Below are positions 3,822 through 64,000 of a DNA stretch of 64,000 nucleotides, piece after piece. Each line of letters starts with the position of its first letter. The stretch's first letter is position 1. The stretch comes from an uncultured Nitrososphaerota archaeon (GTDB lineage: Archaea; Thermoproteota; EX4484-205; JAAOZO01): assembly GCA_964408285.1 (NCBI GenBank), contig CAYOYV010000002.1, forward strand, positions 136,194-200,193. The letters run 5' to 3'. The notes under the pieces were generated by a model. It saw only the letters and a program-made list of their open reading frames with translations, ran no database searches and was not told where the DNA came from. Made by a program: the position numbers and the translations under genes.

Positions 3822-3873
3822 CTCTTATTGAGTCGTGATACATGTGACTCTCTTTTAATACTCCCGGTCAATC

Positions 3874-8547: not shown

Positions 8548-8554
8548 CATAGGC

Positions 8555-9241
8555 ATGTCAAAGCCCTTGGAGGAGTGGCTGAAGGCCAGGAGAACAATAA
8601 GGGTGATGGGCTTAATCCAAGAGCACTCTGAAAAAGCCCTTCAGGTTACCGATGAGTTCCTCCATATGGTTGATGCCTCGATCGCGAATAGACAGCAAGA
8701 TCTTGACTTGGCATACAAGAGAGAAGAGCTCAGGGAAAGGGAGGGTGACGCTCTCAGGAGGAAGATATTGGAGGAACTGGCAAGGGGGGAACTCTCCCCC
8801 GAGGAGCGAGAGTACATCATGCGACTGGCTAGACAGATGGACCTGGTTGCTGACTATGCTCATGGTGCTGGACGGATATTGACTTTCCTCCCCTTGGATA
8901 GAACTGACGAGACGCTTAGGCAGCAGATACATGAGATATGCAACAAGACCAGGGACTGCGTGGCCAACCTAGGGCAGTGCATCAAGGAACTGGTCCAAAA
9001 AGATCTGAATGGTGCTGCCTACTACGTTGATATTATTGAGAAGCTCGAGGAGGAGGTCGACGAACTGCACATGAAGACGAGGAGAACTCTTCTTGGCGAT
9101 TATTACTCTAGGGTCGATCCGAGGATTGTGAGTTTCCTTTCAGAATTCTTCGAGGCGGTCGAGGAGACCTCTGACAGATGCGAGGATTGCTCGGATCAGA
9201 TAAAAGTTCTGATCATATACCTTTCAAAGCCTTCCTCGTAA
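8555..9241 (+). CDS. DUF47 (PhoU-like phosphate transport regulator) family protein
   Basis: EREGDALRR, LEEEVDE, EETSDRCED repeats. Confidence 0.85.
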   Translation: MSKPLEEWLKARRTIRVMGLIQEHSEKALQVTDEFLHMVDASIANRQQDLDLAYKREELREREGDALRRKILEELARGELSPEEREYIMRLARQMDLVADYAHGAGRILTFLPLDRTDETLRQQIHEICNKTRDCVANLGQCIKELVQKDLNGAAYYVDIIEKLEEEVDELHMKTRRTLLGDYYSRVDPRIVSFLSEFFEAVEETSDRCEDCSDQIKVLIIYLSKPSS

Positions 9242-48461: not shown

Positions 48462-49655
48462 TCACTGAGTCCGGTTAATGTCGATGTCGAAGATCGAATC
48501 CTTCAGACTGGATAGATCACGGTGATCTAGAATGAGCTTTTTGAAAGCGCCAAGCTTGGTTGTATCGCCCAAGAGTATCGCCCCCACGATGACACCATCT
48601 TTGAAGACCAATTTCGTGTAATTGCCCCGATCAGCATCAACGTTCTTGCGTTCCTCATACTCTCCACCAGAGGAAGATATCTCGCCTATGGATGCTAGCT
48701 TTATGCCACCAAGCCTGAGAGTGAATGCGTATGGCGTGGCTCCATATGTTGCCGATCCCCCGAGGATATTCTGTGCTGCGATCCTAGACTGATCCATTGC
48801 GGCGGGAATTATGCCATCGATCTTGCCTTTCGCCTCAGCCGCATCGCCACAAGCATATATGTCTGACTCGCTTGTCTGCATTCGGTCATCCACCAGAATC
48901 CCTCTGTTTACCTTCAGGGATGCCTCCACGGCTAGCTCGTTTCGAGGCTTCACACCCGCTGATATCAAAGTGAGGTCTGCCTCAAGCCTGGTTCCATCTT
49001 TGAGGGAAATCTGACTTACGCTCTCATCTCCAAGGATCGTATCGACCTCGCCTCCAACTATGACCCTTATGCCAATCCTCTCAATCATTGAGGTCAGCAT
49101 CAGAGCGGCCTCCTCGTCCAACTGCTTTGGAAGCAATCGCTTGAGGAATTCCACCACTGTTACCTGAAGGCCCAAGGACCGAAGAGCTCCAGCTGCCTCC
49201 AGACCCAAGAGCCCCCCTCCGATTACCACGGCCCTTCGCGCATTTCGTGAATAATCAACTATTGATAGCGCATCTCTTGCGGACCTCAGCGTGAAGACCC
49301 CTTTCTTCTCAACGCCCTTGATAGGAGGGACATTTGGTTTGCTACCTGTTGCCAGTATCAGCTTGTCAAATGCGACCCGTCCATTACCCAAAGAGATTTC
49401 CTTCCGGCTGGGATCCAAGGCGAGCACTTTTTCTCGCAATCTAGTCCTGATTCCCTTCTTCGCGTACCATTCCTCTGGATAGACGAAGATGCTCTCAAAA
49501 GGGGCTCTTCCAGCTATGAATTCCAGAAGATGAGGCCTATTATAATATCGGAACTCCTCATCGGAAATCATCTCGACGCTCACATTTGGAGAGTCTGCCA
49601 AGAGGCTTGCAGCCGACACTCCAGCCACGCCATTGCCGATTATAACTGCCCTCAT
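48462..49655 (-). CDS. FAD-dependent NAD(P)H oxidoreductase (rubredoxin reductase/NirB-N-like)
   Basis: GNGVAG, LATGS, GGGLLGLE, YACGD. Confidence 0.88.
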   Translation of the reverse strand: MRAVIIGNGVAGVSAASLLADSPNVSVEMISDEEFRYYNRPHLLEFIAGRAPFESIFVYPEEWYAKKGIRTRLREKVLALDPSRKEISLGNGRVAFDKLILATGSKPNVPPIKGVEKKGVFTLRSARDALSIVDYSRNARRAVVIGGGLLGLEAAGALRSLGLQVTVVEFLKRLLPKQLDEEAALMLTSMIERIGIRVIVGGEVDTILGDESVSQISLKDGTRLEADLTLISAGVKPRNELAVEASLKVNRGILVDDRMQTSESDIYACGDAAEAKGKIDGIIPAAMDQSRIAAQNILGGSATYGATPYAFTLRLGGIKLASIGEISSSGGEYEERKNVDADRGNYTKLVFKDGVIVGAILLGDTTKLGAFKKLILDHRDLSSLKDSIFDIDINRTQ

Positions 49656-49772
49656 CGTTCCTCTCACCGGAAGGACAATTCCCTTGTCTGAAAAACTTTC
49701 CTCAGGAATAGTGCCCTGTCTCGCGTGCGGCATCAGCTCGCACCGTGAATGCTTATATGACCTTGGCGGTTC

Positions 49773-50285
49773 GTGACGAAGGAATGTCCTTTGGAGCATC
49801 CTGAATCTGGGACTAAGCCGTTTGAGAACGTCAGAAATCAGATAGGCTTCTGTGGAATCTGGTGCGGCAGCTGTGTGGTAGGCAATGGGGCCTTGGTTGA
49901 ACTAACAAGCAAGTATCAGGAGGTCGTTAAGAACTATGGGTTGGATGAGTGGGGTCCCAAGGACTTCGATTTCAAGGAATTCACAAGGGGGCTTACTTCA
50001 ATCAGTTCTATGGCGCTGTGTCAAGGATGTCTGAAGGGAGGGGGAAGGGACAACTGTGAGATCAGATCCTGTGCATCAAGAAAGAACATATCTGACTGTG
50101 GCCAATGCGACCAACCCCTCGCATGCAAGAACCTCAAGATCCTGCAGCACATGCGTACGGGCGCTCAACAAGCGGGTCTATTTGTGAATACCGAGAAAGC
50201 TGATCGAGAGATACTGATACAGAGATGGACTGTCGACCTGAAAAATAGGTGGCCCTCTTGCGTGTTATTTCTAGAGAGCCGATAG
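49773..50285 (+). CDS. DUF3795 Cys-rich protein
   Basis: CGIWCGSC, CQGC, CEIRSC, CGQC. Confidence 0.8.
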   Translation: MTKECPLEHPESGTKPFENVRNQIGFCGIWCGSCVVGNGALVELTSKYQEVVKNYGLDEWGPKDFDFKEFTRGLTSISSMALCQGCLKGGGRDNCEIRSCASRKNISDCGQCDQPLACKNLKILQHMRTGAQQAGLFVNTEKADREILIQRWTVDLKNRWPSCVLFLESR

Positions 50286-50746
50286 GCTAGATTGATTCTT
50301 CTCAGATGCCGCGCCGGGTGAGCCGAGCCAGAAATGCCGATATTCGCTACTGGATTCCGAGTTTCGTTTCCAAGCGTTTGACATAAGGTGGAGGGAAGTG
50401 TCCAGTTCTCACTATGTTCACAAGCCTCATCAATTCTCTCTTTGCCCTCTTGTAGAGAGTCTTCGTGATCCATCCCCTTGCGAGGGCGCGGGCGCTTGGG
50501 CTCTGATGCTCCCTTTCGCAGGCCGGATTCAAGAGTCACATGAACCCATTGGGAGACTGCTGCATCAGGTACAAAATAAGGATATGCATGCTCGCCGCAA
50601 CGCACAAACCATTTGATCCGTCTATTCTCGAACCAAAGCCTTGGCGTGACGAGTGATACGTGGGATCCCTTCCTAAGGGATGAGAGATTCACCGGGAAAT
50701 ATATATTTCTGAACGAGGATCGCAAAGGGGCATGAAAGAGATGATC

Positions 50747-50791
50747 GTAAGCCTTCTGCGTTGTCTTCCTGACTACGCGAGCCGCGATTGC
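50747..50791 (-). repeat. EF-1alpha 3'-end remnant, copy 1 (most decayed)
   Basis: Minus strand reads AIAARVVRKTTQKA(tac); DNA aligns with copies 3 and 4. Confidence 0.55.
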
Positions 50792-50852
50792 CTTGAGCGA
50801 ATCTCGGACTAAATTGCTAAATACATCAGGCGAAGCGGACTAAATCGATGAT

Positions 50853-52061
50853 ATGAATAGGATATCTGCTTACATTTGCGGAGATAGTGGGGGGAGTGAC
50901 GAGTTCAATCCGTTCAAGATAACCCAACAAGATCATGTGCCGGAAATGCTCTTCCTTCTGAATTCAGCGCCAATGAACGTCAACGAACTGTCGTCGAACT
51001 TGGATATCGGTGTTGAGCTTGTGGAAAAGCTGCTAAACGATCTATCCAAAATCAGAGCAGTTGTTCACCAAGACGGCAGATGGGCCGTTTCATTCGCTAT
51101 ATTCAGTAAGCAGGACATCGATCTAATTGCCGAGAGAACCGAGAAACCTGCGCGGAGGCTTGCCGAAGAGATAATGGGAACGGGACCGGAGATCGAGAAG
51201 CGCCTACTTCAATTGACTTGCGCGAAGCAAGTAGAAATGAAGAAGCTGATGCTCGCGGTAGTGGGTTGCTTCTTGCTTGATTGGAGGAGTCTGGAGATCC
51301 TGAACGAGAAGAATCTCACGCTATGCGGGAAGAAGGAGCAGCCTGGGGGAGGAAAGTACATCCTACTCGGGAAGGAGGAGGGGGTAGAGAAGAAGCTATA
51401 TGACAAGGTATATTGGGGAAGTCACAACAGCAACTTCGGAGGATTCAAGTTCACTAGTTTCGGTGATCATACTGGGTATAGATACTCATTCCCAGACCTC
51501 GTCTGGAACTTCCCTGATACGACTTCCCAAAATAGGACTGACCTACCCGATTGGCTTAGGACCAATATCTCTGAAGCTGTCAGGACCTTTGAAACGAACT
51601 CACTCGTAGACTGCGGCCAGTTGCTTCTTTTCCTGAACAAGAAGGGCTCTTTTGACATTGGCCACTTGGCAAGCAAGCTCGGCAAAGAGAAGTACCAAAT
51701 AGAAATCCTCCTTAGGCTTCTTTCTGATATGAAGTATGTTACGCTGACAGACGAGAAGGTTGGACTGAACTATCCAGTTTTCGAGACTCAAGACAAGGGG
51801 GCTGTCGACTCGGCGTGGGAGATCGTGTCTGAATCCATTGAAAGAGAAGCGTGCAGATACTTCGATTCGCTAAGATCTGAATTGGCCGAAATAACTCCTA
51901 TCAGGAGGGGAATCGATCCAAGGGAGATATACACGGATATATGGCACTGGGTCTTCGGACAAACTAACCGTATTATGGCTGAAAGGGGATTTCTTTTCGA
52001 CCCGACAAGAGAAAGAGAGCAGGAGGGCAGGTACATCGCTTGGATTGAAGAAGCGTATTGA
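50853..52061 (+). CDS. Hypothetical protein with winged-helix segments
   Basis: 402-aa ORF; PMNVNELSSNLDI, IGHLASKLG. Confidence 0.7.
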   Translation: MNRISAYICGDSGGSDEFNPFKITQQDHVPEMLFLLNSAPMNVNELSSNLDIGVELVEKLLNDLSKIRAVVHQDGRWAVSFAIFSKQDIDLIAERTEKPARRLAEEIMGTGPEIEKRLLQLTCAKQVEMKKLMLAVVGCFLLDWRSLEILNEKNLTLCGKKEQPGGGKYILLGKEEGVEKKLYDKVYWGSHNSNFGGFKFTSFGDHTGYRYSFPDLVWNFPDTTSQNRTDLPDWLRTNISEAVRTFETNSLVDCGQLLLFLNKKGSFDIGHLASKLGKEKYQIEILLRLLSDMKYVTLTDEKVGLNYPVFETQDKGAVDSAWEIVSESIEREACRYFDSLRSELAEITPIRRGIDPREIYTDIWHWVFGQTNRIMAERGFLFDPTREREQEGRYIAWIEEAY

Positions 52062-52095
52062 GTGGCCCCTCCCTTTTCGTAATTGCCTGCTCTCT

Positions 52096-53103
52096 TCAGC
52101 CGAAGTATCTTTTCAAGACCCCTAGGGCGCCGAGGGTAATCCATTTGCTCGGTTTGGTTTTTTGTTCGATGTTCGTCTGAAAGCGCCCGTTGAAAGTGCT
52201 TTCGAGCTTCCATTTGCCCTCATCGTCTTGTTTCGAAACAACCAAGTCTATGGCTTCTTGCATCCGTTCGTCCTTATAGCCGAGCTTCGTAAGTATTCCC
52301 AGAATTTCTAAGACATCTGTCTGGTACATCAAAGGGAAGCCGAATCTCAACCAACCGGGCTTAGATACGCGGCTTAGGTCGTGACTTCTTTTGTAGATGT
52401 GGTGTTGAAGAAAATATTCCGTTCCCTTCTCGATTACGTTTTCCACTTCCCCGTTTCTCTTTGTCTCTGGGATTTCCGCAAGCGCTTTCAACGCCTTAGC
52501 CGCACCCATGTGGCAGGTATGCTTCCCAAAACACATTTCAAACCTTTCGTAAGGCCAACCTCTAGGCCGCTCCTCTATTCCATCATCGAATCGTTGATAG
52601 GTTACAATCCAGTCTATTCCATGCTGGACCCTTTGGTCTTCGAGATAACCGAGTCTGATCAGACTCCAGACCATGTTACCCGTCAAGCAAGGAATCACTC
52701 CGCTATGCAAGCCCCCGCCAGTTTTTGCACTGGTACAATAAGAGAAGCCGCCGCTTTCGCGATCTTGAGAGGTGCTAAGTATGAATTCACAAGCCTTCCT
52801 AACGCGCTTATCTTTTCCATCGGCATCAAGTTCGGCAAGGATCAAGAGCTGCCACGCCGTTCCCTTGTATTTGGCCGTGTAGAATCTCCCAGGCTGTTCC
52901 CAGTATCCTGCTCTGTTCTGTTTAGCCAAAATCTTCGGAACGACGCCGATTTTCATTATTTCATTCCTCGCCCTCTTAACTTCTACATCCTTCTCAGACT
53001 TTCCCACAATGTCGGTTAAGGCAAAGAACCGTACAGAAGGATTATCACTTTCCAAAAGCCAATCCGTCTGGTCTTCTTTCAAAAGCGATTTCCAGTCATG
53101 CAA
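52096..53103 (-). CDS. Prenyltransferase/squalene-cyclase-like (alpha/alpha) repeat protein
   Basis: WLLE..NPSVR, QNRAGYW, FGFPLMYQTD, QDDEGKW, PSKWIT. Confidence 0.75.
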   Translation of the reverse strand: MHDWKSLLKEDQTDWLLESDNPSVRFFALTDIVGKSEKDVEVKRARNEIMKIGVVPKILAKQNRAGYWEQPGRFYTAKYKGTAWQLLILAELDADGKDKRVRKACEFILSTSQDRESGGFSYCTSAKTGGGLHSGVIPCLTGNMVWSLIRLGYLEDQRVQHGIDWIVTYQRFDDGIEERPRGWPYERFEMCFGKHTCHMGAAKALKALAEIPETKRNGEVENVIEKGTEYFLQHHIYKRSHDLSRVSKPGWLRFGFPLMYQTDVLEILGILTKLGYKDERMQEAIDLVVSKQDDEGKWKLESTFNGRFQTNIEQKTKPSKWITLGALGVLKRYFG

Positions 53104-53185
53104 TTGGTTTCACTCTCATTCAGACGAGCTTGTTGGCTTTTAAGCAAATCGCCTAGGCAACAGCGTGCGTTTCGGTCCAGCACAG

Positions 53186-53212
53186 AACTGACTGAACTAA
53201 TAAACTCTACGA
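53186..53212 (+). repeat. 27-nt dispersed repeat, also at 63968-63994
   Basis: AACTGACTGAACTA-NN-AAACTCTACGA, 25/27 identical. Confidence 0.8.
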
Positions 53213-53270
53213 CTTTCTGACGGATGCTGCCAACTGGCAACTATTCGATTAGACGATCAGCTAACTCGCA

Positions 53271-53861
53271 CTATGGACCCCCTTGAATTCTTTTCTGTAC
53301 TCTCTTCCAAGAATTTGTAGTGAGGAAACTTTCTTTCATGTTGTGAACCATACGCTCGAACTTGAGCATGGGTACAGAAAACGACAATATGTTCTGTGGA
53401 ATAAGGGAGCGCGGTGAAACATCAAACAATCCTATGACTGCTCTTGGATGGATAGAGTCTTTCTCAAGAAAGGGATACGTTACGATTGAGGAACACCCTG
53501 AACCCCAAGGAGTGAAAACAGCGTTGGGTTCCGTTACTTCAAAATTCGCCAATGTGAAGAGGCCTGAAAGCACATCGGGGGATGCGAAAAAGATTACGAC
53601 TTCGGGTTCATCCGACTCACTCAATAAGTCCCACCTCTTGAAAACCATGAATCTTCCTGGGGCCTTGAACGATGGAAGAAGCTTGAGCGCCTCGGCAGCG
53701 ATTTCGGGGAGGTCGGTTCCTACCGAGACGACGAGAAGACCTATCACCATTGTGGGTACGCCGAAAGCCGCCGCGAGATGTACTGCATGATCTACTCCCC
53801 GATGGCTACAATACGCAAGCAAGGCCATTCCCAAGACCAATGACGCGAGCTCAGTAATCAT
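53271..53861 (-). pseudogene. Chimeric ORF: Na/Ca exchanger N-terminus joined to DUF169 C-terminus
   Basis: VIGLLVVSVGTDLPE then VFKRWD..PEVVIFF..PDVLSGL..GSGC..GLFDVS. Confidence 0.65.
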
Positions 53862-54064
53862 TTCGGATGGCCTGGTTTTTCGCCCTAATATATGTTTGGT
53901 TTTTCACACGCGGCGATGCACGCAGGCTAGTGGGACTGGAAGGCTAAAGGACTTCGCCCAGCCGACCCTCACTCTTTTGTCTCGGCTTCACGACCGCTGC
54001 AGACCGGAGACTGCTGCGAGAAAAACGATACACTTATCTACGACAAGGCCCACTCATAAACGGG

Positions 54065-54127
54065 ATGGCAAAAAAGAAAGCGAAGCCTGTAAAGAAGAAA
54101 CCAGTGCCAAAGAAACCGACATGCTAG
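54065..54127 (+). CDS. Putative 20-aa lysine-rich micropeptide
   Basis: MAKKKAKPVKKKPVPKKPTC*; CTTATCTA upstream, oligo-T downstream. Confidence 0.5.
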   Translation: MAKKKAKPVKKKPVPKKPTC

Positions 54128-54280
54128 TCTGGGAATTCGGCAAGTCAGTATGCTCACCTCCTTTTTTTGCATTCACGTACGAGACCGCGGTGGCTGACCC
54201 GCGCGCAAGCCGTGGGCTCACGGCCGTGAGCTGTGACCGAACCTACACGCTCTCTAGATAGAAGAATGAAGAGGAAGGTT

Positions 54281-54343
54281 CTATACCATGCGTTATTTCC
54301 CTGATTAGGTCAGCCGCCATTATCATGCCCGTGCCCCGATTGC
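54281..54343 (-). repeat. EF-1alpha 3'-end remnant, copy 2 (frameshifted)
   Basis: AIG-/-TGMIMAADLIREITHG; aligns with 59731-59796. Confidence 0.7.
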
Positions 54344-54422
54344 AGAGGTAGTTGTTAGGGGAAATGCCTCAAGATACCAATGACGATCAGTCGAATTTGC
54401 GAATCTTAGTGAACTTGGGGCC

Positions 54423-54782
54423 TCACAGTATTAAGCCTGAAGCCCTTACTCCTCTGGCGTCGCCGGACGTGGGATCTATTGCTATGCCTAGGTCTTCCAT
54501 AACAGAGGTCCCCAGTAGCGGCTCAGGAGATTCGAGCACGGCGGCCAGGGCTATGCTCTCACCATCCAGGGCGTTCGCATAGACCACGACGAGGGGTGCC
54601 TCCGTCTTCCTTCCGTCTGCCAACATCAAGATCCTAGTCGCTACTGGAGCCAGATTAAGCTCAGCGGCCATGACCGGGGGCAAGACCATGTACGAAGAGC
54701 CGGTGTCGGCCAAGAATTCTACCTCTTTCAGTCTGGACTTGTCCGGCGGACCGACCAAAGCCTTAATCTTCACATATTCCAT
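54423..54782 (-). CDS. Clan AA (retropepsin-like) aspartyl protease, copy A
   Basis: FLADTGS, PLLG, LGIAIDP. Confidence 0.88.
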   Translation of the reverse strand: MEYVKIKALVGPPDKSRLKEVEFLADTGSSYMVLPPVMAAELNLAPVATRILMLADGRKTEAPLVVVYANALDGESIALAAVLESPEPLLGTSVMEDLGIAIDPTSGDARGVRASGLIL

Positions 54783-55003
54783 GTTGCAATAAACACCAAG
54801 ACATCGAGGTATATAGACCGACCCGGATTGGCTATCTCAAGATTGTGATGATGCGCGTTCATGTTCTGTACCAATGCCTCTGATTTCGGTCTTGATGTCC
54901 AACTTAAGTGCCAAGTCTGTTTCGATCCAGCAAATATCACTGAAGTATTGAAAAACGAGATAGGGGTCGTGCGCCTCGTTGTGAATCGTCGCGTCCCTGG
55001 AAA

Positions 55004-55240
55004 TCAGGACGTTGAGGGCTTACGTAATCGGGCCATTACATAGTAGAGGGAGAAAAGTCCTGAAGCAAAGAAGATGATACACAGAATCACGAGCACACCG
55101 CGTTGAACTCCGATCCAAAAAACGTCTGAATGTAACGGGAAATCTGTCGTGAGCAAGTGCCAAGCAATGGACAAGGTTGCAGGAATCAGCACAATCGAAC
55201 TAATAGCATATAGGAGTATCCTAGATTTGTCGTTTCTCAT
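55004..55240 (-). CDS. Small two-TM membrane protein
   Basis: Two hydrophobic helices; TATA-like box upstream. Confidence 0.55.
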   Translation of the reverse strand: MRNDKSRILLYAISSIVLIPATLSIAWHLLTTDFPLHSDVFWIGVQRGVLVILCIIFFASGLFSLYYVMARLRKPSTS

Positions 55241-55524
55241 GGGGTTAAGTCAGGTCAACAGACGTATATGGATCTTTTCGCTATAGACACAGTTGTAGCA
55301 TGAATTAAAAACCTCCGAAGGCAAGGAGTATAATTCGCACTGGTATCGTACAGAAGGCAGATGCGTCCGCGCGCGATGACCAGAAGGTGTGTGATTGGGG
55401 AGTAGCACGCGCCGTTTTAACGTCATGAGCGGTCACCAAGCACTCAAAGGTTTAAATAGCGCAGAGAATTAGGCCCCACCAGATCGGTTTTTTCACATTT
55501 GACCGATTCGAGGCAACAAACTAT

Positions 55525-56094
55525 TTGGGCATTAGAGAGAGGATAGAAAAGTTCACTAATGGTCTTATGGGGAATGACGACATTGCTAAGATTGCAAGGA
55601 GATACCTTGTGATGAACTCCTTCGACGGTGTCCTGACCATTCTAGGAGTCGTCGTTGGAATCTACATGGCTGATGGGGCACCCCATCCTAGCATTGTTCT
55701 TAGTGCAGGCCTAGGTGCAAGCTTAGCGATAGGCATCTCTGGATCGGTGGGCACTTATCTTACTGAGAGGTCTGAGCGGACAAGGGAAAAAGCCAGTAGT
55801 GAGGACGCGCGTAGCAAGGACGTACATGGGGAGTCTTTGCTCCTAGCCCTTGTTGATGGTCTTTCCCCGCTGCTCGCTACCTTGATAGCGATCATCCCCT
55901 TCTTCCTGGCTTTGAAACACATAATCTCGATTGAGGCGGCGTTCATCTTGTCAATAATCATCATCTCAGGGGAACTCTTTGGCTTGGGAGCCTTTCTCGG
56001 CAAAATCGCTGGAAGGGATATTGTCCTTCACGGACTGATCACTGTGTTTGCAGGGGCAGCTACATTCCTAGTAGTTTCTGCACTACCTTTCTAG
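55525..56094 (+). CDS. VIT1/CCC1 family transporter
   Basis: RRYLVMNSFDGVLT, GISG..YLTERSE. Confidence 0.82.
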   Translation: MGIRERIEKFTNGLMGNDDIAKIARRYLVMNSFDGVLTILGVVVGIYMADGAPHPSIVLSAGLGASLAIGISGSVGTYLTERSERTREKASSEDARSKDVHGESLLLALVDGLSPLLATLIAIIPFFLALKHIISIEAAFILSIIIISGELFGLGAFLGKIAGRDIVLHGLITVFAGAATFLVVSALPF

Positions 56095-56136
56095 GTATAG
56101 ACTGAACTACTAACAAAACGCTTGTGCGCGCGCGAG

Positions 56137-56280
56137 CCCCCACGCACTTTCTCGATCTTTCTTACTTTTTTCTCTATTCTCCCTTTTCTGTTCTCTCTCA
56201 GTACACAGTACACCACAATATATCACTATATCACCGTATCACGTATTTCGCATATATTGTATATATCACATACAGAGCAC
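56137..56280 (+). repeat. Variant copy of the 61001/63944 repeat element
   Basis: CCCCCACGCACTTTCTCGAT ... four TATCAC ... ATCACATACAGAGCAC. Confidence 0.6.
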
Positions 56281-56350
56281 ACCCGTGCCTTGACTTGTTC
56301 CTCCCGCCTCCGTCACTCATGCTTTTATAGCTGGGCCTAAGAACTGGAAA

Positions 56351-57163
56351 ATGTCCTATACATTGGACAAAGCCAAACAAGCAAAGGCCAAGGAAATTCA
56401 GAAGCAGGTCAACGAGGCCCTCGAGGATTTCAAGAGGAATTTCGAACCGGAATTGAAGAAAATGGGCCTAGTGGCCCATTTCAGCCTTTCAGGCTTAGAC
56501 GCAGAGGAAGGGAGGCCGGGTAACATGATTGCAAGATTCATTGATAAGGATGGAAACCAGGTGGCGATCGTCCGGTGTCTGGACATCTACGAATACGTTT
56601 CTCTGGAATTCCCAAGGCATCGCGTGTACTTCCCTGCAACGATCTGGCGCACAATTGTCAGGGGTTCCTTGCCGTTCACGCTCGTGTTCAAGGAGATCCA
56701 TATGGGCCTATTCAAGGGGTTTGAAGGGTACTTCGTGCCTCTAGATTCGCTGCTCTCCATGACGAAGGAGCAGGAGGGGCAACTGCTCAACGATCCAGTC
56801 CTTCGACATCCTCTCACAGCGGCCTTGAACGCAGACAGGAACCTCGCGGAGAACATCCTCAAGAAGCTCTATTTGTCCGGGGAACTCTACTTGGATGTCT
56901 TTAGGAGACTGAATATCACACTTTCAGATCCCGGAAACCGATGTGTGATCATGCCCGTCGGAGAGGAGACCGCAATCTTCCTCAGAACCGTGGAGTACGA
57001 ACCCAACATTGAAAGAATGCTTGAGTTCCTCTCAGCGATTCGCGGACATGTCCTTCCTCATGTCCAGATAGGAAGCGTTGTGGGCACATCCCCTGCCCCT
57101 GTGTTCAACGCTCTCTATTTCCTCGCCCTCGAGTCGGGACCAACAAACCTGGAATCCAAGTAG
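56351..57163 (+). CDS. Hypothetical protein
   Basis: 270-aa ORF with TTTTATA box upstream. Confidence 0.7.
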   Translation: MSYTLDKAKQAKAKEIQKQVNEALEDFKRNFEPELKKMGLVAHFSLSGLDAEEGRPGNMIARFIDKDGNQVAIVRCLDIYEYVSLEFPRHRVYFPATIWRTIVRGSLPFTLVFKEIHMGLFKGFEGYFVPLDSLLSMTKEQEGQLLNDPVLRHPLTAALNADRNLAENILKKLYLSGELYLDVFRRLNITLSDPGNRCVIMPVGEETAIFLRTVEYEPNIERMLEFLSAIRGHVLPHVQIGSVVGTSPAPVFNALYFLALESGPTNLESK

Positions 57164-57216
57164 GACTGAAGCCCCGCGCGCGTCCGATGAAAAACCGGAG
57201 AGACTGGGGATCTTGA

Positions 57217-58038
57217 CTAGGGAGGTGGTGGAGGTGGCGGAGTCATGAAAGCACGGTCGCGCTGTTCCATTATTTCAGTCCTCAGAGTTTCGACTTCCAT
57301 TATGTCACCGAATTCCAGCTGTTTGGGCTCAATGGTAGATGCAGGTGGCTGGGAAAAACCCTGTGTTACCACCTCTTTCAAGACGAGGTTTGATAAATTC
57401 TTGTAGATTGCTCTCCTGGCTGTCACAACTAGTTTCTTCCCCCCGAATAGTGGTTTCTTCACGTCACAATTGACTATCTCAGTCAGGGGTATTTCGAGAG
57501 AGAACGCCTCCAGTGCTCTGTATCCATGGTAGATCAGTCTTTGACCTGTTAACAGGAGAAAGCCCCGGCTCTCAAGTCCTCCTACACCCTTAACCCTCTT
57601 CACGATTGTCTCTCCTTCCTCCAGCTTCATAGGGATTGGAATGGCGCCAAGGGCAAGCGTAGCGATCCTTCGCACAGTCTCGTTTTTGTCCTTGACCAGG
57701 GATTCTACCAGAGATTCAACGACTTCCTTTGTCCTATTCCCCTCAAAAGCCCAAGCTTTCCCGTCAGGATCAGAAGCAGCGCCGAGAAAACTGAATGAAA
57801 GAGCAAGTGCCGCTTCCGAGCGAACCTCGGCGTTTTCATCCTTGAGCGATTTCATCAGTGGTCCAACGACATTTTCTAGCAATGGTGCAGCGACCTTTTC
57901 TTCCTGTGCGATCTTACCTATGGCTGAACTAGCATCGCGGCGGACGTGCCAATCGTCATGCTCCAGTGCCCTCAGCAATCCCTCGATATCTGTCCTTTTT
58001 CTCAGTTCTCCAATATTCGGTTTGGAATGATTGGACAT
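57217..58038 (-). CDS. HEAT-repeat protein with PH-like domain and poly-Pro tail
   Basis: WHVRRDASSAIG, EVRSEAALAL, GFLLLTGQRLIY, PPPPPPP. Confidence 0.75.
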   Translation of the reverse strand: MSNHSKPNIGELRKRTDIEGLLRALEHDDWHVRRDASSAIGKIAQEEKVAAPLLENVVGPLMKSLKDENAEVRSEAALALSFSFLGAASDPDGKAWAFEGNRTKEVVESLVESLVKDKNETVRRIATLALGAIPIPMKLEEGETIVKRVKGVGGLESRGFLLLTGQRLIYHGYRALEAFSLEIPLTEIVNCDVKKPLFGGKKLVVTARRAIYKNLSNLVLKEVVTQGFSQPPASTIEPKQLEFGDIMEVETLRTEIMEQRDRAFMTPPPPPPP

Positions 58039-58167
58039 TCCTTGGGCGATTGATTGGCACGCCTATCTGCTATAAATTCATTTTCCTGTCAGAGCTGAAG
58101 AGATATCGTGTGTGTGGGGGTTGAAGTCTTAGAACCTGATACTAGTCTGACGCAGGCTGTTTGCATA

Positions 58168-58206
58168 CGCGAAATACTCTATATATGTGGAAAGATTATC
58201 GAAAAA
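58168..58206 (+). repeat. Conserved ~39-nt motif next to EF-1alpha remnants
   Basis: 32/39 identical to 59683-59721; partial copy 60410-60433. Confidence 0.8.
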
Positions 58207-58219
58207 TGAGATGAGTGTC

Positions 58220-58291
58220 CTAACGCTTCTGTGTGATTTCGCTGATTATGCCAGCCGCGATTGTGATGCCCGCGTCCCTGATGGCGCGCCC
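58220..58291 (-). repeat. EF-1alpha 3'-end remnant, copy 3
   Basis: Minus strand reads GRAIRDAGITIAAGIISEITQKR*. Confidence 0.8.
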
Positions 58292-58570
58292 TTCGAGATA
58301 GGTCTACGAATGCCTTGGGTTCTTGGCCGAGGCTCCTTCGATGATCAGGAAATGCTCATGGATGTGCAAGAGAGTGCACAGCCTGGGTACAAGATACGTG
58401 ATTCAGATGTCTCGCGATCCTGTCACTCTGTTGAGCCGGAGTTCCTCTTCGCGCACGCGACCTAGCCAATGGAATCAAACCACAAACCGCCTCTCGATCG
58501 TCTGCGAAAGGGAGCGATGCGGAGGGGCCTTAATATGATAACGCTTAAATAGCCTGTGGTGGGATGAAAA

Positions 58571-58822
58571 GTGGGACGTTTGGCAGACGAAGCTACAGTG
58601 GACGAGAAGGGCAGGATAGTGATTCCAAGAGATGTGCGTGAAAAATATGGTCTGCGTCAGGGAGCCAGAGTTAGGCTGAGGAGAGAAGGTAGGGGGATAG
58701 TCGTAGCAAGTTCAATATCCCCAGAGAAGTTCATCGATGAAATGGAGGGGTTTATCAAGAAAGGATCTAAGGTTACACAAACTGACCCCCTACGTCTGAA
58801 GAGAATCTGGGAAATGCCTTGA
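58571..58822 (+). CDS. vapB: AbrB/MazE-type antitoxin
   Basis: VDEKGRIVIPRDVRE..GLRQG. Confidence 0.88.
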   Translation: MGRLADEATVDEKGRIVIPRDVREKYGLRQGARVRLRREGRGIVVASSISPEKFIDEMEGFIKKGSKVTQTDPLRLKRIWEMP

Positions 58823-59223
58823 TTTACATCGATGCCAACTATTGGATATATTGGTTTGATGGACGTTTGCCGGAACACAAACATGTGCTGACTACAATGA
58901 GAGAATCCATTCGAGAAGGCATCTTGATGAATGCGGTTACGCTTATTGAGGTTGCGCATTATTTCCGCCATCTACCCAGAGAGGAATTCCTAGATAGGAT
59001 GACCGCCATACAGGACTTGGACACATTAACCCTAGTCAACCTAGATGAGGAGATCTCGAGGCTCGCGTTCGAACAACTAACCGAATATGCGAAGATCGGC
59101 ATTGGTGGTAGAGATAGTGTGATTCTTGCAACAATGAAGGCTGCCGCCGTTAGGAGGATAGCCACTCATGATAGTGTGTTCAAGAAAGTAAAATCCATTA
59201 AGGTGATTGATGCAATCACCTGA
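58819..59223 (+). CDS. vapC: PIN domain toxin
   Basis: IYIDAN, E, RDSVILA, ATHD; TTGA overlap with antitoxin. Confidence 0.9.
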   Translation: MIYIDANYWIYWFDGRLPEHKHVLTTMRESIREGILMNAVTLIEVAHYFRHLPREEFLDRMTAIQDLDTLTLVNLDEEISRLAFEQLTEYAKIGIGGRDSVILATMKAAAVRRIATHDSVFKKVKSIKVIDAIT

Positions 59224-59254
59224 ACTGTTTCGATCTTCCCGCGCGCGTGAAGCT

Positions 59255-59512
59255 CTATGTTCTTGTGCTTTCGTCAGAGCCTTCTGACCTCTTGGCGCTG
59301 GATTCTTCTTCTATCTTCTTCTTTTTGGCCCACTCTTCCAGTCTGCTCCCAAGAACCGCCACGAAGAAACCCGGGAGACCAAAGAACACTCCAACGGGTC
59401 CAAGCCCCCCGAAGACGGCAGCCCCGATTCCGCCTAAGATCAATAGCACCCCGAGTGCAGAGACACAAATTCCAAGTATCCTTAGAGCCTCGTAGAAGGC
59501 GGGAGAAGCCAA
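59255..59512 (-). CDS. Small membrane protein
   Basis: Two Gly-rich TM helices, charged tail. Confidence 0.55.
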   Translation of the reverse strand: MASPAFYEALRILGICVSALGVLLILGGIGAAVFGGLGPVGVFFGLPGFFVAVLGSRLEEWAKKKKIEEESSAKRSEGSDESTRT

Positions 59513-59730
59513 CCCTTTTGGTCTTGAGCCTTCGCTGCTACGTAGCTATTTAAGACTAAGAGAGACGCGCGCGAGAAATATTCCTGATATAATTTGTATG
59601 ACAGTGAACGCGCGTTCTGTAGGTTTCGTGGCCACGCGCGCAAGCTCGCGCGCTCGACTTTGACAACCGGATCTAGCATTCGCGCGAAAGACTCTATGTA
59701 CGTAGAAAGATTACTAAAAAAAGAATAGGC

Positions 59731-59796
59731 CTAACCTTTCTGAGTTATTTCTCTGATTACGTCAGCCGCGATTGTCATTCCCATGTCCCTGATTGC
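59731..59796 (-). repeat. EF-1alpha 3'-end remnant, copy 4 (best preserved)
   Basis: Minus strand reads AIRDMGMTIAADVIREITQKG*, then oligo-T. Confidence 0.85.
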
Positions 59797-59878
59797 AGAA
59801 GTACGCGCTAGGGGGAATCCCTCAGGACATCCATGACGATCAATCGAAATTCCGAATCCTAGTGAACTCTGAGCAGCG

Positions 59879-60238
59879 TCATAGCATTAGGCCTGATGCC
59901 CTCACTCTTCTGGCCTCGCCTGACACGGGATCTATGGCTATACCTAGGTCTTCCATAACAGAGGTCCCCAGTAGCGGCTCGGGAGATTCGAGAACGGCGG
60001 CCAGGGCTATGCTCTCACCATCTAAGGCCTTGGCATAAACTACCACAAGGGGTGCCTCCGTCTTCCTTCCGTCTGCCAATGTCAAGATTCTAGTGGCTAC
60101 TGTAGCCAACTTAAGCTCTGCTGCGATATGTGGGGGCAAGACCATGTACCAGGAGCCAGTGTCGGCCAAGAATTCTACCTCCTTCAATCTAGACTTGTCC
60201 GGTGGACCCACTAAGGCCTTAATCTTCACGTACCCCAT
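59879..60238 (-). CDS. Clan AA (retropepsin-like) aspartyl protease, copy B
   Basis: FLADTGS; 107/119 aa identical to copy A. Confidence 0.88.
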   Translation of the reverse strand: MGYVKIKALVGPPDKSRLKEVEFLADTGSWYMVLPPHIAAELKLATVATRILTLADGRKTEAPLVVVYAKALDGESIALAAVLESPEPLLGTSVMEDLGIAIDPVSGEARRVRASGLML

Positions 60239-60514
60239 GTCTCAACAAACGTAGGGCATCGAGGTATATAAACCGACCCGGATTTGAGCAGGTCTTAGAG
60301 AATCAGCCTTGATGGGCTTGCGATGGTCATGTTGTGCTGCGCATTAATAGGATTCCGTTATGACTTCTTCAAACTGAAGGGTCTATTCCTTCGCCCGAGC
60401 TTGAGTACCATGTGTGTAGAAAGATTATTAAAACTAGTGGCGCGCTCGTGGGAGAGGGTTTCGCAACTGATGGACCGCGCTCTCCTGATGCGTCAAGCCT
60501 TATAACCGAACCGG

Positions 60515-60940
60515 ATGCTGACTCCTCAAGTGCTAGTCGGCGAAAGGCCTCTGGGTGTTACCATTGTGGGCATTTTGGTCTTCTTGGACAGCGGACTCAT
60601 GATGATGATCGGGTTGAACACGGGTTTGCCCCTTAGTTACCTCGGAGGTCCAATGAGCTTGATAGGAATCTTATGGCTCTTCTGTGCAGTGATTGGGATG
60701 ATTCTCTCGCGGGGATTGTGGTCTAGGAAGTGCTGGGCATGGCTCGCGACATTGATAGTGACGGTACTCGCCGCAGTCGGACTGATTGGAGGGTGGATCG
60801 CGCTTATTCCGCAGGTCTTCCGCGGCGGCATTGTGAGTGCCTTTGTGCAGGATGCTATCATCATCTACTACCTACTCGGGCCAAATGTAAGAGCTTGGTT
60901 CGCGCGTGCCTCTTCACTAGCTCCACCACCACCAAAGTAG
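60515..60940 (+). CDS. Four-TM membrane protein with Pro-rich tail
   Basis: RPLGVTI, GLW..K.WAW, IIYYL..PNVRAWF. Confidence 0.75.
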   Translation: MLTPQVLVGERPLGVTIVGILVFLDSGLMMMIGLNTGLPLSYLGGPMSLIGILWLFCAVIGMILSRGLWSRKCWAWLATLIVTVLAAVGLIGGWIALIPQVFRGGIVSAFVQDAIIIYYLLGPNVRAWFARASSLAPPPPK

Positions 60941-60977
60941 TGCAAGCGCGTCGTGTGTGGATTAAATTTTAGTTTGC

Positions 60978-61061
60978 TGTGTGTGGGGCTAAACCTTAAT
61001 CCCCAACACGCACATTTTCTCGATAGCGCGCGCTATCACATGTATCACGTATATCACACAC
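60978..61061 (+). repeat. Left palindromic repeat element
   Basis: TGTGTGGGG-CTAAACCTTAAT-CCCC hairpin, GATAGCGCGCGCTATC palindrome, three TATCAC. Confidence 0.85.
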
Positions 61062-61072
61062 GCGCGTCGTCG

Positions 61073-61495
61073 TTATCCGTATTTGATCCCCAATTCGTCG
61101 AATCGCTTGCGGAACGCCTTCCAATACGGTATGTCCTTCGTGGCCTCGTTAAAGTAAGTTGGATTTACACCTATGTGAACCTCGTAATCTTTGATATATT
61201 TGCCCCAGTGTCTCATGAATTCCTCCCCCATCTCTACCCAGTCCGCCAAGTCGTTGACCTCGTAGACTACGAAGGCATCAAACTTACCCATCATGACACA
61301 ATTATACCAGAAGGCCGACACTCCTTTCTTCTCCCATCGCTTGGCGGTCTCATCGAAACCTTGACGCAATTCCACCCATTTCTCTGGGGGCATTGTGAAG
61401 TTGTCATCAGTCCACTTGCATAGAACCAGAATACCAATCTTCTTCTCCGGAGACATCCTTCCATATACATCCCATTCCTCAGACAACGTTGTCAC
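61073..61495 (-). CDS. Hypothetical protein, possible dimeric alpha+beta barrel (GYD-like)
   Basis: MGKFDAFVVYEVND pattern; TATA box upstream. Confidence 0.6.
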   Translation of the reverse strand: MTTLSEEWDVYGRMSPEKKIGILVLCKWTDDNFTMPPEKWVELRQGFDETAKRWEKKGVSAFWYNCVMMGKFDAFVVYEVNDLADWVEMGEEFMRHWGKYIKDYEVHIGVNPTYFNEATKDIPYWKAFRKRFDELGIKYG

Positions 61496-61696
61496 TTCCT
61501 GTTGCGTTGGTAATCCTGGCGCACTCCTTATTATTTAAAGTCATGCGGCGCGCGAGCCCATCCGTCGTTATCATGCTCTCGAAATAAAGTCGGCTTTGTC
61601 TAAATAATTTTCTCGCTGGCTAGATGATTATTCTTTCTGAAGATCTGATGATCGGGAGACTACGCATCCGCAGCAGATGAAAGAAAGCGTGCACGT

Positions 61697-62698
61697 TTAC
61701 TGAAACGGAGGCTCTTGCATGTCAAGCCAGGCTTCAGCAATGTTCGTTGCATTTCCCCTCATCCCATGGATTTTGTAGAACAGGCAGACTAGCGAACTTG
61801 TCTTCGCCGAAGACCTTACAGACTTCTCAATGTCTCGCTCTTCCTGGTGCTTCGTCTTGATTATTTCCATGAGCTTCTGCCTATCATTCTTGCCGGAATA
61901 TGCTTTTTTCACCAGCTGGTGGCTCTGGTCATAATATTCTTTCAAAGCGAAGGGATCCCCAGCGAGACCGATATCCTTCCTCGCTTGCTCTCCCCTCTCT
62001 TCACTTAATCTGCAGAGTTCTTCAAAGATTTCGCATTGTAAGTCACCCAGTCTTTCTATATTCGCGTTTATCGTGCTGTATTGCTCGAGATCCGTTATGT
62101 CTTCAATCTCCATCTGAGGCGCAATCGAGGGCATCATCAGAAGCCGGTTCAATAATCTCTTCAAGAGGAAGCTGTGTCCGTCGATGGCATCTTCAGAAGC
62201 CTGTATAATCGAACGCGTCTGGTCAGATTCGTCCGTGGATATGGGCAATCTACCGAGAATGACATTGTTGTGTTCATACATGGCTGAATATTGTTCAAAC
62301 ATGATGTCCAGCAACCGCGAAACCGGTACAGGATCTGTCGAAATCGAAACCTGGAATCTGTTTCCAGAGGGAGGACCAACTCTGAGGCCAATCAGCTTCG
62401 TTTGGAGTCTGTGCAGTTCCTCGATGCATTTGGGCCATGGCTTCTCAAACACCACATCAATCTCGTCATAGTGGTTTAGGTATGCCCCGATCATGTCATT
62501 GCGAAGTTCCAGCGGATCCCCGACCTTGACCTGCATTCCTAAATTACTGTGCTCATATATCTCGGAAGGCGTGAGAGTTAGCCCGTATTTTGTCTGAGTA
62601 ACGACGATTTTTCCTTCCTTCACCTTTTCCGCCCATTTCTTTGGGACGACAGTAACATAGCTGAACTTTCCCGCTCTCCAAATCCTCCGGTGCTCCAT
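61697..62698 (-). CDS. Divergent AbrB-PhoU phosphate uptake regulator-like protein
   Basis: RRIWRAGKFSYVTVVPKKWA, GAYLNHYDEI, IERLGD, ATNIAE. Confidence 0.75.
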   Translation of the reverse strand: MEHRRIWRAGKFSYVTVVPKKWAEKVKEGKIVVTQTKYGLTLTPSEIYEHSNLGMQVKVGDPLELRNDMIGAYLNHYDEIDVVFEKPWPKCIEELHRLQTKLIGLRVGPPSGNRFQVSISTDPVPVSRLLDIMFEQYSAMYEHNNVILGRLPISTDESDQTRSIIQASEDAIDGHSFLLKRLLNRLLMMPSIAPQMEIEDITDLEQYSTINANIERLGDLQCEIFEELCRLSEERGEQARKDIGLAGDPFALKEYYDQSHQLVKKAYSGKNDRQKLMEIIKTKHQEERDIEKSVRSSAKTSSLVCLFYKIHGMRGNATNIAEAWLDMQEPPFQ

Positions 62699-62832
62699 AG
62701 CTACTGTCGTCTTGAAATATTGTAGCCTTTGTTTAAATATATTCTTATGAGCCTAGTCATTACTTTTCTGAAGACTTCCTTACTTCGATTAATCCTTGTT
62801 GAGGTTCAGGATTTTCTCTAGAGACGCCTTAT

Positions 62833-63861
62833 ATGGGGGAAACCCCGGCGGTGCAACAAATGAACAAGATGTTATTGGTAACAGTGGCGGTGGCTGTTTG
62901 TGTTGTGGCGGCTGTCGTCATTTACTTTGGCTATGGTCCGAAGCCCCAACCAGCAGGATACTTCGCGGCAACCGGAACGAGCCCAGTCATCGAATCGGGG
63001 GCACGGGGGGCCTCATGGGACAGCAGTAACTGTTGGTGGTCCAGTGTTGTTGTGAAGGGCGGAACGTACTACTTGTTCTATTCCGGTAGCTCATCAGAGG
63101 AGCTCATTACCTCGTGGATCGCTCTTAACATGTCGATCGGCTACGCGACCTCCACTGATGGGTATACCTTCACAAAGTCCAACTCCAACCCCATTCTCAC
63201 AGGCGCTTGGGCGCCTGCGGTCCTGTGGGACGGAAGCAAGTGGATACTTTATTACAGCGCCTCCGTAGGAGGAGATATTGTGGGGCCTGTCAGACGGGCT
63301 ACTGCCCCGGACCCCTCAGGCCCTTGGACAAGGGATGAGAAACCTGTTCTTGAACTCGGAGGCGAAGGCGAATGGGATTCATTCGCTACCCTGCCAGACT
63401 GTGTCATGCTCGTAGATGGCACATACGTGATGTACTACACAGCTGTTGATTCTGGGGGGACGGGCATAGCAATCGGAAGGGCGACTTCGCCGGATGGAAT
63501 TACGTGGACAAAGTACAATAACGCTACAACAGGCCGGCCCTACGCTGAGAGCGACCCAGTGCTAAAGCCCGGCAAGGTTTATGATGCATATGAAATCTGG
63601 AAATCCTGTGTGAGGAAGACCGCGACAGGCTGGGAGATGTTCTATACTGGAGATCCCTCAGCAGACGTCCCTTGTGCGATATGCTATGCAACCAGCTCCG
63701 ACGGCATCTACTGGACAAAGTTCGAAGGCAACCCGATAATCGCGCGACAGTCGTTTCAGCCGACCTTCTTCGTGAAGGACTCGACCTACTTCCTGTATTA
63801 CGATGAGGGCCCGCGGGGAATCTATCTGGCAACAGGCCTGAAACCACCCTTCGCGCCTTAG
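62833..63861 (+). CDS. Membrane-anchored beta-propeller glycosidase-like protein (GH43/32/130-like)
   Basis: N-terminal TM; repeated YYLFYSG / IGYATSxDG..WTK..NPI. Confidence 0.78.
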   Translation: MGETPAVQQMNKMLLVTVAVAVCVVAAVVIYFGYGPKPQPAGYFAATGTSPVIESGARGASWDSSNCWWSSVVVKGGTYYLFYSGSSSEELITSWIALNMSIGYATSTDGYTFTKSNSNPILTGAWAPAVLWDGSKWILYYSASVGGDIVGPVRRATAPDPSGPWTRDEKPVLELGGEGEWDSFATLPDCVMLVDGTYVMYYTAVDSGGTGIAIGRATSPDGITWTKYNNATTGRPYAESDPVLKPGKVYDAYEIWKSCVRKTATGWEMFYTGDPSADVPCAICYATSSDGIYWTKFEGNPIIARQSFQPTFFVKDSTYFLYYDEGPRGIYLATGLKPPFAP

Positions 63862-63879
63862 CTTCTGTTCAACGTGCTT

Positions 63880-63994
63880 TGTGTGTGATATACGTGATAC
63901 ATGTGATAGCGCGCGCGCTATCGAGAAAATGTGTGTGTGTGGGGAGCTAAACTTTAACCCCCACACAAACTGACTGAACTACGAAACTCTACGA
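63880..63994 (-). repeat. Right palindromic repeat element (inverted relative to 61001-61061)
   Basis: Reverse complement matches left element; GATAGCGCGCGCGCTATC palindrome; TGTGTGGGG/CCCCACACA hairpin. Confidence 0.85.
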
Positions 63995-64000
63995 GGGCGC

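Follow-up and report, generated by a model that had tools for sequence, protein, structure and literature searches.

In the text of PMC6563490, 14 of 68 integrated elements of thaumarchaea are placed in 3'-distal parts of genes for proteins, and family 1 casposons are described as targeting the 3' end of the aEF-2 gene in Nitrosopumilus, tandem pairs included. The tycheposon islands of Prochlorococcus, as outlined in bioRxiv 10.1101/2020.12.28.424599, are shaped by newer elements that push older ones inward, and partial copies of the target remain. Here, we analyse a stretch of 64,000 nucleotides (nt) from an uncultured Nitrososphaerota archaeon (G000:C2:136194-200193; hereafter the window), which carries four short copies of the 3' end of tuf, the gene of the translation elongation factor EF-1alpha. 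These units are probably attR-type scars: small blocks of 0.6-3.9 kb would have entered the final 22 codons of tuf one after another, with the gene being restored.

The source genome (G000) is an archaeal metagenome-assembled genome (MAG) of 1.82 Mb in 46 contigs, which is 93.7% complete; its GTDB class comprises only 26 species genomes. Position 64000 of the window coincides with the end of the 200,193-nt contig C2. Reference for the identity figures was the tuf gene of the metagenome locus L079, the nearest tuf found. Its EF-1alpha has the C-terminus FAIRDMGMTIAAGVIREITQKA, that of same-family genomes is LGRFAIRDMGMTIAAGVVKEITQKA/V. The four units (r59, r58, r54 and r50) and one shorter feature (x60) are located as follows; L078 denotes a second metagenome locus.

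59679..59798, minus strand: r59, the youngest scar, with 87% identity to L079 tuf in the coding part; tuf homology begins at 59796
58163..58288, minus strand: r58, scar plus a post-stop motif of approximately 55 nt common to r59 and L078 (nhmmer envelope)
54232..54347, minus strand: r54, scar with a 1-nt deletion, in a duplicated protease module (nhmmer envelope, scan and shuffles)
50689..50813, minus strand: r50, the most decayed scar (alignment to real tuf from -42 to +12 past the stop)
60410..60433, minus strand: x60, 24 nt, post-stop motif only, no recognisable tuf coding part upstream (score 33, reached by 0 of 500 shuffles)

Unit extents were taken from nhmmer envelopes, the model being built from the four copies themselves. 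A unit consists of approximately 66 nt of tuf coding sequence and approximately 50 nt of post-stop sequence. All four are co-oriented on the minus strand within 9 kb and are situated between open reading frames (ORFs) with family matches. x60 may mark another boundary, a fifth one that is truncated. Near 54960, a candidate for a sixth scar (x55) was dismissed: its best score (23, against r58) was reached by 6 of 500 shuffles and nhmmer missed it.

On the protein level, r59 (59731-59796) reads AIRDMGMTIAADVIREITQKG and r58 (58220-58291) reads AIRDAGITIAAGIISEITQKR in an intact frame, each followed by a stop. r50 reads AIAARVVRKTTQKA, which an upstream extension turns into VRDSLKAIAARVVRKTTQKA; its stop is lost. 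The translations of these three units stand as given in the preliminary description, whereas the frame given there for r54 is interrupted by stops. Read in a single frame, r54, which carries its deletion relative to r59, yields NRGTGMIMAADLIREITHGI, again with the stop lost. In an ungapped six-frame BLOSUM62 scan with the 22 C-terminal residues of L079 EF-1alpha against all 22-residue windows of the 1.82-Mb assembly, the four segments occupied ranks 1-4 with scores of 86 (r59), 74 (r58), 45 (r50) and 39 (r54), the best background score being 32. Local alignment of the DNA of each segment to the L079 tuf end gave scores of 78 (r59), 57 (r58), 48 (r54) and 53 (r50), far above the maxima of 200 shuffles (25-29; r54 28, r50 25). 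The last 44 residues of EF-1alpha of the same-family genome G005 matched G000 with per-genome E values of 9e-6 (r59) and 3e-4 (r58). No further copies in G000 were found by blastn or with the nhmmer profile, for which the next match had an E value of 0.45. The earlier assignment of all four segments to the 3' end of tuf is thus confirmed, and tuf-like fragments are not scattered over the genome beyond this region, hereafter the island.

The left starts of the tuf homology lie close together, at -66 in r59 (window 59796), -67 in r58, -59 or earlier in r54 and approximately -60 in r50 (from the protein alignment), all within about 7 nt of codon -22. The independent metagenome scar on L078 starts at approximately -57. 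Identity of the coding part to L079 tuf is 45/52 (0.87) for r59, 40/52 (0.77) for r58, 36/52 (0.69) for r54 and 31/52 (0.60) for r50, so that decay is monotonic away from the high-coordinate side, on which tuf is expected. An open frame with its stop is kept only in r59 and r58; the frames of r54 and r50 are broken. Among one another, the units are 58-83% identical in the coding part. By identity gradient and frame loss, the array shows the newer-near, older-far order with decaying remnants of tycheposon-like islands.

Over 23 codons, r59 differs from L079 tuf by nine synonymous and three non-synonymous changes, one of the latter affecting the boundary codon and one the variable last residue. 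The homologous part of L078 shows nine synonymous differences and one non-synonymous difference to the same gene. The mostly synonymous divergence of r59 indicates that it diverged as a working gene end and began to decay only lately. In the 55 nt after the stop, r59, r58 and L078 are mutually 63-76% identical (r59 and r58 69%), compared with only 42-44% identity to the native downstream region of L079 tuf.

The metagenome loci were retrieved with a degenerate DNA pattern of the tuf end, which gave at least 120 loci. Of those listed, 119 are real tuf gene ends; L096 and L139, both complete in length but broken in frame, are counted among them. Outside the island, the matches listed contain a single tuf-end scar, that on L078 (Ga0129298_10037988, 2299 nt), at approximately 179-232 of the stored strand. 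It forms a 32-codon frame ending in TDMGMTIAAGVIREITQKG and is 81% identical to window positions 59682-59787, including the post-stop motif. Its context differs from that of the island, with the scar adjoining a membrane-protein gene. Self-blastn revealed no second copy inside any of the at least 120 listed metagenome loci.

Parallel copies of gene ends occur at two other places in G000. The aEF-2 gene on contig C29 (minus strand, stop at 7330) runs to the contig end at 8782, where its N-terminal third is cut off. When the genome was scanned with the 24 C-terminal residues of aEF-2, the match ranking second lay 2.4 kb downstream of the gene on the same strand (score 62; next 41). The copy comprises 41 nt with 88% identity (C29 7333-7373 versus 4892-4932; score 57, shuffle maximum 26). 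Between the two copies lie VapB (6975-7226), VapC (6572-6985) and approximately 1.6 kb without family matches. The aEF-2 scar is present in 1 of the 26 class genomes, namely G000. The second case is a nitroreductase gene on C7 (3818-4339, minus strand), the last 49 nt of which (3818-3866, including the stop) are copied with 88% identity at 1686-1734, 2.1 kb downstream. Here, the insert codes for a MarR/DUF5678-like protein, a 132-amino acid ORF and a 2-hydroxyacid dehydrogenase. At both loci the intact target gene is present along with one scar copy, and the target sequences of tuf, aEF-2 and the nitroreductase gene are mutually unrelated. Genome-wide, eight pairs of short direct repeats within 25 kb were found, which include the r58/r59, aEF-2 and nitroreductase pairs.

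Some further observations were made around these loci. The aEF-2 remnant continues in frame into a winged helix-turn-helix (wHTH) ORF, followed by a PIN gene, and an MNT/HEPN pair follows the nitroreductase remnant. The 12-mer CGAAACCCTCTC, found right behind the stop of aEF-2 and again a short way upstream of x60, was discarded as a candidate: it occurs three times in the genome, the third time within a gene, and extended alignments did not exceed shuffles. On C12, direct repeats of 133 nt (7216-7346 and 8768-8898, 81% identity) flank a single gene for a 453-amino acid membrane protein (7355-8716, minus strand).

EF-1alpha itself is absent from the assembly of G000: PF03143 gave no match and TIGR00483 matched only below its cut-off, a model that scored above cut-off in 24 of the 31 genomes searched. 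The best TIGR00483 match in G000 (302 bits versus a cut-off of 540) is a 403-amino acid EF-1alpha/CysN-like GTPase paralogue on C4 (99081-100292, plus strand). This paralogue is the sole tuf-like gene in the assembly, and similar ones are present in G007, G009, G010, G121, G251 and G293. The rps12-rps7-tuf order of the same-family genome G002 is not kept in G000. There, rps7 stands alone (C12 18206-18781), followed by a deoxyhypusine-synthase-like gene (named from the sequence by eye), and nusA (C8 61933-62370) is followed by a methyltransferase-like gene; tblastn with rps12 of G002 yielded no match in G000 at E <= 1e-10. C2 ends in a repeat, and its end shows no overlap with any other contig end of the assembly.

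The sequencing runs that contain the island are metagenomes of freshwater and other sediments. Run X1, with 0.93 of the sampled words of the island, is probably the source run of the assembly. One X1 contig agrees with the window as far as 59796 and extends by at least 255 further letters. The reverse complement of the first 30 letters of this extension, translated by hand, reads FKEFPPLGRF, which corresponds to the residues before AIRD in L079 tuf, and the DNA of these letters differs from L079 by one base. An intact tuf therefore exists in the sample, and it ceases to resemble the window precisely at the left border of r59. The contig may represent either the occupied junction (attL) or an allele without the newest block. 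The depth of X1 along the region is given below.

49001-49852: X1 depth 25.9
49988-50649: X1 depth 27.6
50715-53374: X1 depth 24
53473-54623: X1 depth 21.9
54594-58587: X1 depth 19.1
58558-59792: X1 depth 17.3
60050-60583: X1 depth 13.1
61032-63444: X1 depth 10.1

The depth drops stepwise toward the tuf side. The steps are suggestive of cells with nested subsets of the blocks, the newest blocks being present in the fewest cells.

In the proposed mechanism, tuf would be located on the minus strand just past the contig end. An incoming block would bring its own copy of the tuf end together with a terminator region, and recombination near codon -22 would leave the gene whole. The former gene end and all earlier insertions would be shifted downstream, where the displaced end would escape selection and decay. 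By displacement in this direction, the newest block would come to lie nearest to tuf, and r50, as the oldest scar, would border on the flank that was there at the outset. Insertion at gene ends also accounts for the absence of tuf and of the aEF-2 start from a MAG that is otherwise 94% complete; tuf and the cut-off part of aEF-2 may share one unassembled stretch.

The preliminary description had seen no recombinase at the locus. This result is confirmed and now extends to the whole assembly by profile searches. The proteins of the island matched no recombinase family in Pfam, PHROGs, NCBIfam or PADLOC, two Atlas look-ups of the unnamed ones revealed no recombinase-like family either, and models for tyrosine recombinases (PF00589, PF16795), serine recombinases (PF00239) and Cas1 (PF01867) gave 0 matches in the assembly at E <= 0.1. 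TnpB-type matches in G000 are below cut-off. With the tyrosine recombinase models, G000 lacks even a XerA-type match at E <= 0.1. A tyrosine recombinase match was obtained in 16 of the 25 other class genomes (15 above cut-off), and in those compared it was never located beside tuf. We infer that the reaction is site-specific and that its enzyme is encoded in the unassembled DNA, e.g. on a tuf-proximal element, or belongs to a family not yet recognised.

An integrase-independent capture would make such an enzyme unnecessary. Circular DNA with a short copy of a conserved gene end, such as DNA excised from another strain, could be taken up by a single homologous (Campbell-type) crossover that duplicates the 40-125 nt of homology and inserts the remainder. 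We consider this unlikely, despite two points that speak for it: no searched recombinase family is found in the assembly despite six blocks and three unrelated targets, and the repeats are long (41-125 nt), like homology arms. Some archaea recombine with very short homology. The junctions of random circles would scatter, however, whereas four independent left boundaries fall within approximately 10 nt (-67, -66, about -60 and about -57). The aEF-2 and nitroreductase repeats stop at or just after the stop codon, which fits gene-restoring att sites. The missing recombinase has to be read against the incompleteness of the assembly, as MAGs often lose mobile elements.

A slightly less likely explanation is that one old event, an insertion or a rearrangement, split off the tuf end and that local duplication and gene conversion then spread the scar and its neighbours; tuf would then not be a site of repeated use. 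It draws on a module of approximately 555 nt that is present twice in the island.

59730..60284, minus strand: module copy 1, with a TATA-like promoter stretch, protease gene (59879-60238), 82-nt spacer and r59
54278..54829, minus strand: module copy 2, with protease gene (54423-54782), spacer and r54

The gene codes for a 119-amino acid retropepsin-like protease (clan AA) with a match to PF13650 and a match below cut-off to TIGR03698. The two module copies are 80-96% identical in DNA, depending on the segment, and 90% identical in protein; the TATA-like stretch is kept in both. r59 and r54 also have in common a derived GGC-to-GAC change (G to D) at a residue that is G in 119 of the 119 real tuf ends listed. 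Based on the shared module and the shared derived codon, r54 and r59 have common ancestry and are not independent displaced ends. The number of independent events is accordingly at least three, not four, and one or more of the steps duplicated or re-inserted the protease module and did not bring in an unrelated element. A single original event is disfavoured by r58 and r50, with upstream flanks related neither to the module nor to one another, and by the blocks between the scars, which have no other sequence in common. Divergence dominated by synonymous changes indicates working gene ends, ordered decay and depth steps fit serial addition, and a related scar stands in another context on L078. 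The protease was rejected as a marker of the element: two homologues (67-74% amino acid identity) in a genome contig collection have no adjoining tuf remnant. In the viral contig collection, 0 protease homologues were confirmed.

It is very unlikely that the array is an artefact of assembly or binning, in which strain variants with different blocks were strung together via their shared tuf end. The sample is a strain mixture with unequal contig depths and variant letters, and the contig terminates in a repeat. Yet the units, at 58-83% identity, have in common no exact word of a length that would mislead an assembler, and independent Logan contigs of X1 span r58 (54594-58587) and r54 (53473-54623) and lead on from r50 to the block belonging to it. 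The run contigs listed show no scar-to-scar joint. Runs X2-X4 contain the island in pieces only, at 3-9x, which permits no inference on absent blocks.

Target-site duplications of casposons are 14-15 nt long. Casposon-type insertions as at aEF-2 in Nitrosopumilus hardly come into question: translation-factor ends are targeted and tandem casposons known according to the text of PMC6563490, and aEF-2 of G000 is scarred, but the assembly contains no Cas1, the repeats measure 41-125 nt, no terminal inverted repeats bracket the blocks, and blocks of 0.6-3.9 kb are without a polymerase match.

Taken together, we favour serial insertion at tuf with restoration of the gene: the units have one orientation and a common boundary, decay in order and diverge in the manner of coding sequence, a tuf junction is found at 59796, and the parallel loci have their genes intact. 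Elements of the tyrosine-recombinase type form arrays in this way at tRNA genes as well as at the ends of protein genes. Several points weigh against it. Neither contig nor assembly contains the intact tuf or the attL side, so that a physical link between array and tuf is presumed for this genome. The X1 junction is a single contig, with the extent of its overlap with the window not visible, and the depth gradient consists of one figure per contig and could be caused otherwise by strain mixtures. The 55 nt after the stop are unlike the region downstream of L079 tuf, which blurs the exact crossover point. No recombinase, not even a fragment, was found in a 93.7%-complete assembly despite six blocks at three targets. 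A free element with a tuf end was not found either, the degenerate pattern giving 0 matches in the viral contig collection. Finally, r54 and r59 belong to one duplicated module with the G-to-D codon in both. The earlier proposal that successive insertions at tuf built the array is thus partly supported on the basis of scars, boundary, age gradient, X1 junction and parallel loci, with the restriction that these two units are not independent.

Among relatives, a tuf-end copy in a short frame was found in 0 of the 25 other class genomes and in 0 of the 400 other genomes of a 401-genome phylum sample; second matches in G007, G009, G010, G121, G251 and G293 lie in frames of 416-459 amino acids and are paralogues. 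The tuf loci of three same-family genomes (G002, G003 and G005) have no scars. In G003, tuf is directly followed by a conserved GTPase gene; the relatives compared belong to other genera, so these loci are not isogenic empty sites. Between tuf and the GTPase gene, G005 (L019, G005:C158, 3548-6635) holds approximately 3 kb of extra genes relative to G003 (L018, G003:C55, 6947-7406), without a scar. This difference between two species of a sister genus indicates that the spot downstream of tuf is variable there too.

The blocks between the scars and the DNA on the tuf side contain the following features.

58571..59223, plus strand: pair of VapB (AbrB/MazE-type, PF04014) and VapC (PIN, PF01850), in the r59-r58 block of approximately 1.5 kb
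54830..58162: block between r58 and protease module 2, with the next three entries and small ORFs
57217-58038, minus strand: HEAT-repeat protein, r58-r54 block
56351-57163, plus strand: hypothetical protein of 270 amino acids, r58-r54 block
55525-56094, plus strand: VIT1-family membrane protein, r58-r54 block
50814..54231: oldest block, between r54 and r50
50853-52061, plus strand: 402-amino acid protein with weak wHTH-type matches, r54-r50 block
52096-53103, minus strand: prenyltransferase/SQHop-cyclase-like protein, r54-r50 block
53271-53861, minus strand: chimeric ORF of an Na/Ca-exchanger N-terminal fragment and a DUF169 C-terminal fragment
60285..64000: tuf-proximal DNA up to the contig end, with the lowest X1 depth (10-13x)
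within 60285..64000: 141-amino acid membrane protein and 140-amino acid protein
61697-62698, minus strand: AbrB/MazE-PhoU regulator
62833-63861, plus strand: GH32/43/130-like protein

The preliminary description had seen unrelated accessory genes between the segments, which holds for VapBC and the HEAT, VIT1 and prenyltransferase-like genes and fails for the protease module, present twice. The island has genes on either strand, with promoter-like stretches of their own. Its G + C content (47-54%) is the same as the genome average, and homologues of one of its genes sit in records titled Nitrososphaerota and Bathyarchaeia MAGs. No tRNA is present in the window and an Rfam search gave no match at E <= 0.1; a promoter and terminator scan was uninformative, the tool being bacterial and the host archaeal.

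Within the chimeric ORF, positions 53322-53552 had a depth of approximately 140-1670x in all four runs, compared with 2-30x for the island. The fragment is thus common (at >= 90% identity) to very abundant organisms or elements of these sediments. At the contig end, a 56-nt inverted repeat (84% complementary; 61001-61061 and 63881-63943) encloses a three-gene segment of 2.9 kb. It holds a GTGTGTGGGG...CCCCACACAC hairpin with a fold z-score of -4.4. The hairpin 10-mer occurs six times in the genome, three of these in the island (58108-58127, 60979 and 63935), and three hairpins like the GTGTGTGGGG hairpin of the island are found on L078. A low-depth contig of run X4 connects 61025 with 63916 across opposite strands and may reflect an inversion.

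Little is known of how flexible islands arise in uncultured archaea. Their mobile elements are usually found via integrases, so that insertions without an integrase are missed. At this locus, the scars alone reveal an ordered history, with no fewer than three or four additions downstream of a gene that is essential and highly expressed, and the newest blocks are apparently still variable between the cells of one sediment population. Discovery of a recombinase would make EF-1alpha a new att site in archaea; if there is none, the locus points to a way of gaining genes that has gone unrecognised. The targets named in the text of PMC6563490 do not include EF-1alpha, and no paper describing EF-1alpha or tuf as an archaeal attachment site turned up in full-text literature searches; the supplementary target table of PMC6563490 lies outside both statements.

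Compared with the integrated elements in the text of PMC6563490, the hosts of which belong to a phylum related to that of this archaeon, the locus has in common insertion at a gene 3' end with the frame restored, flanking att sites in direct repeat and arrays formed by re-use of a site. Those elements were found through integrases, whereas here none is present in six blocks or in the assembly, and the repeats measure 41-125 nt. Direct repeats in one orientation, each matching the target's 3' end, are those of a tyrosine-recombinase array, while an integrase in or beside the elements is lacking. With casposons, as described in the text of PMC6563490, the locus shares a translation elongation factor gene end as docking site and tandem occupancy, and aEF-2 of G000 is also scarred. 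It differs from them by the absence of Cas1 and of terminal inverted repeats at the blocks, by long direct repeats (66-125 nt) and by far smaller blocks; its only long inverted repeat (61001-61061 and 63881-63943) brackets no scar-bounded block. Successive integrations at one site, older insertions pushed away, remnant target copies and heterogeneous populations are features in common with tycheposons as outlined in bioRxiv 10.1101/2020.12.28.424599, in which a tRNA is the target, the hosts are bacterial and integrases or their fragments are seen; in the island, a protein-gene end is used and none are seen. Like integron cassettes, the blocks are small, with one to few genes each closed by a site-like repeat, the newest beside the fixed site, and carry toxin-antitoxin cargo. 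Unlike integrons, there is no IntI-type recombinase, genes lie on both strands with promoter-like stretches of their own, and the units are not attC-like (fold z-scores of -1.63, -0.01, +0.20 and -1.57). Membership in the casposons and in the integrons fails on every tested feature. We tentatively raise the rather doubtful possibility that a cassette-capture system docks small blocks, often with toxin-antitoxin genes, on the 3' ends of conserved genes, namely EF-1alpha (repeatedly), aEF-2 and the nitroreductase gene, without a recombinase of a known family and is still active in the sampled population. Driven by an undescribed enzyme or by short-homology recombination, such capture would be a functional archaeal counterpart of the integron and tycheposon platforms.

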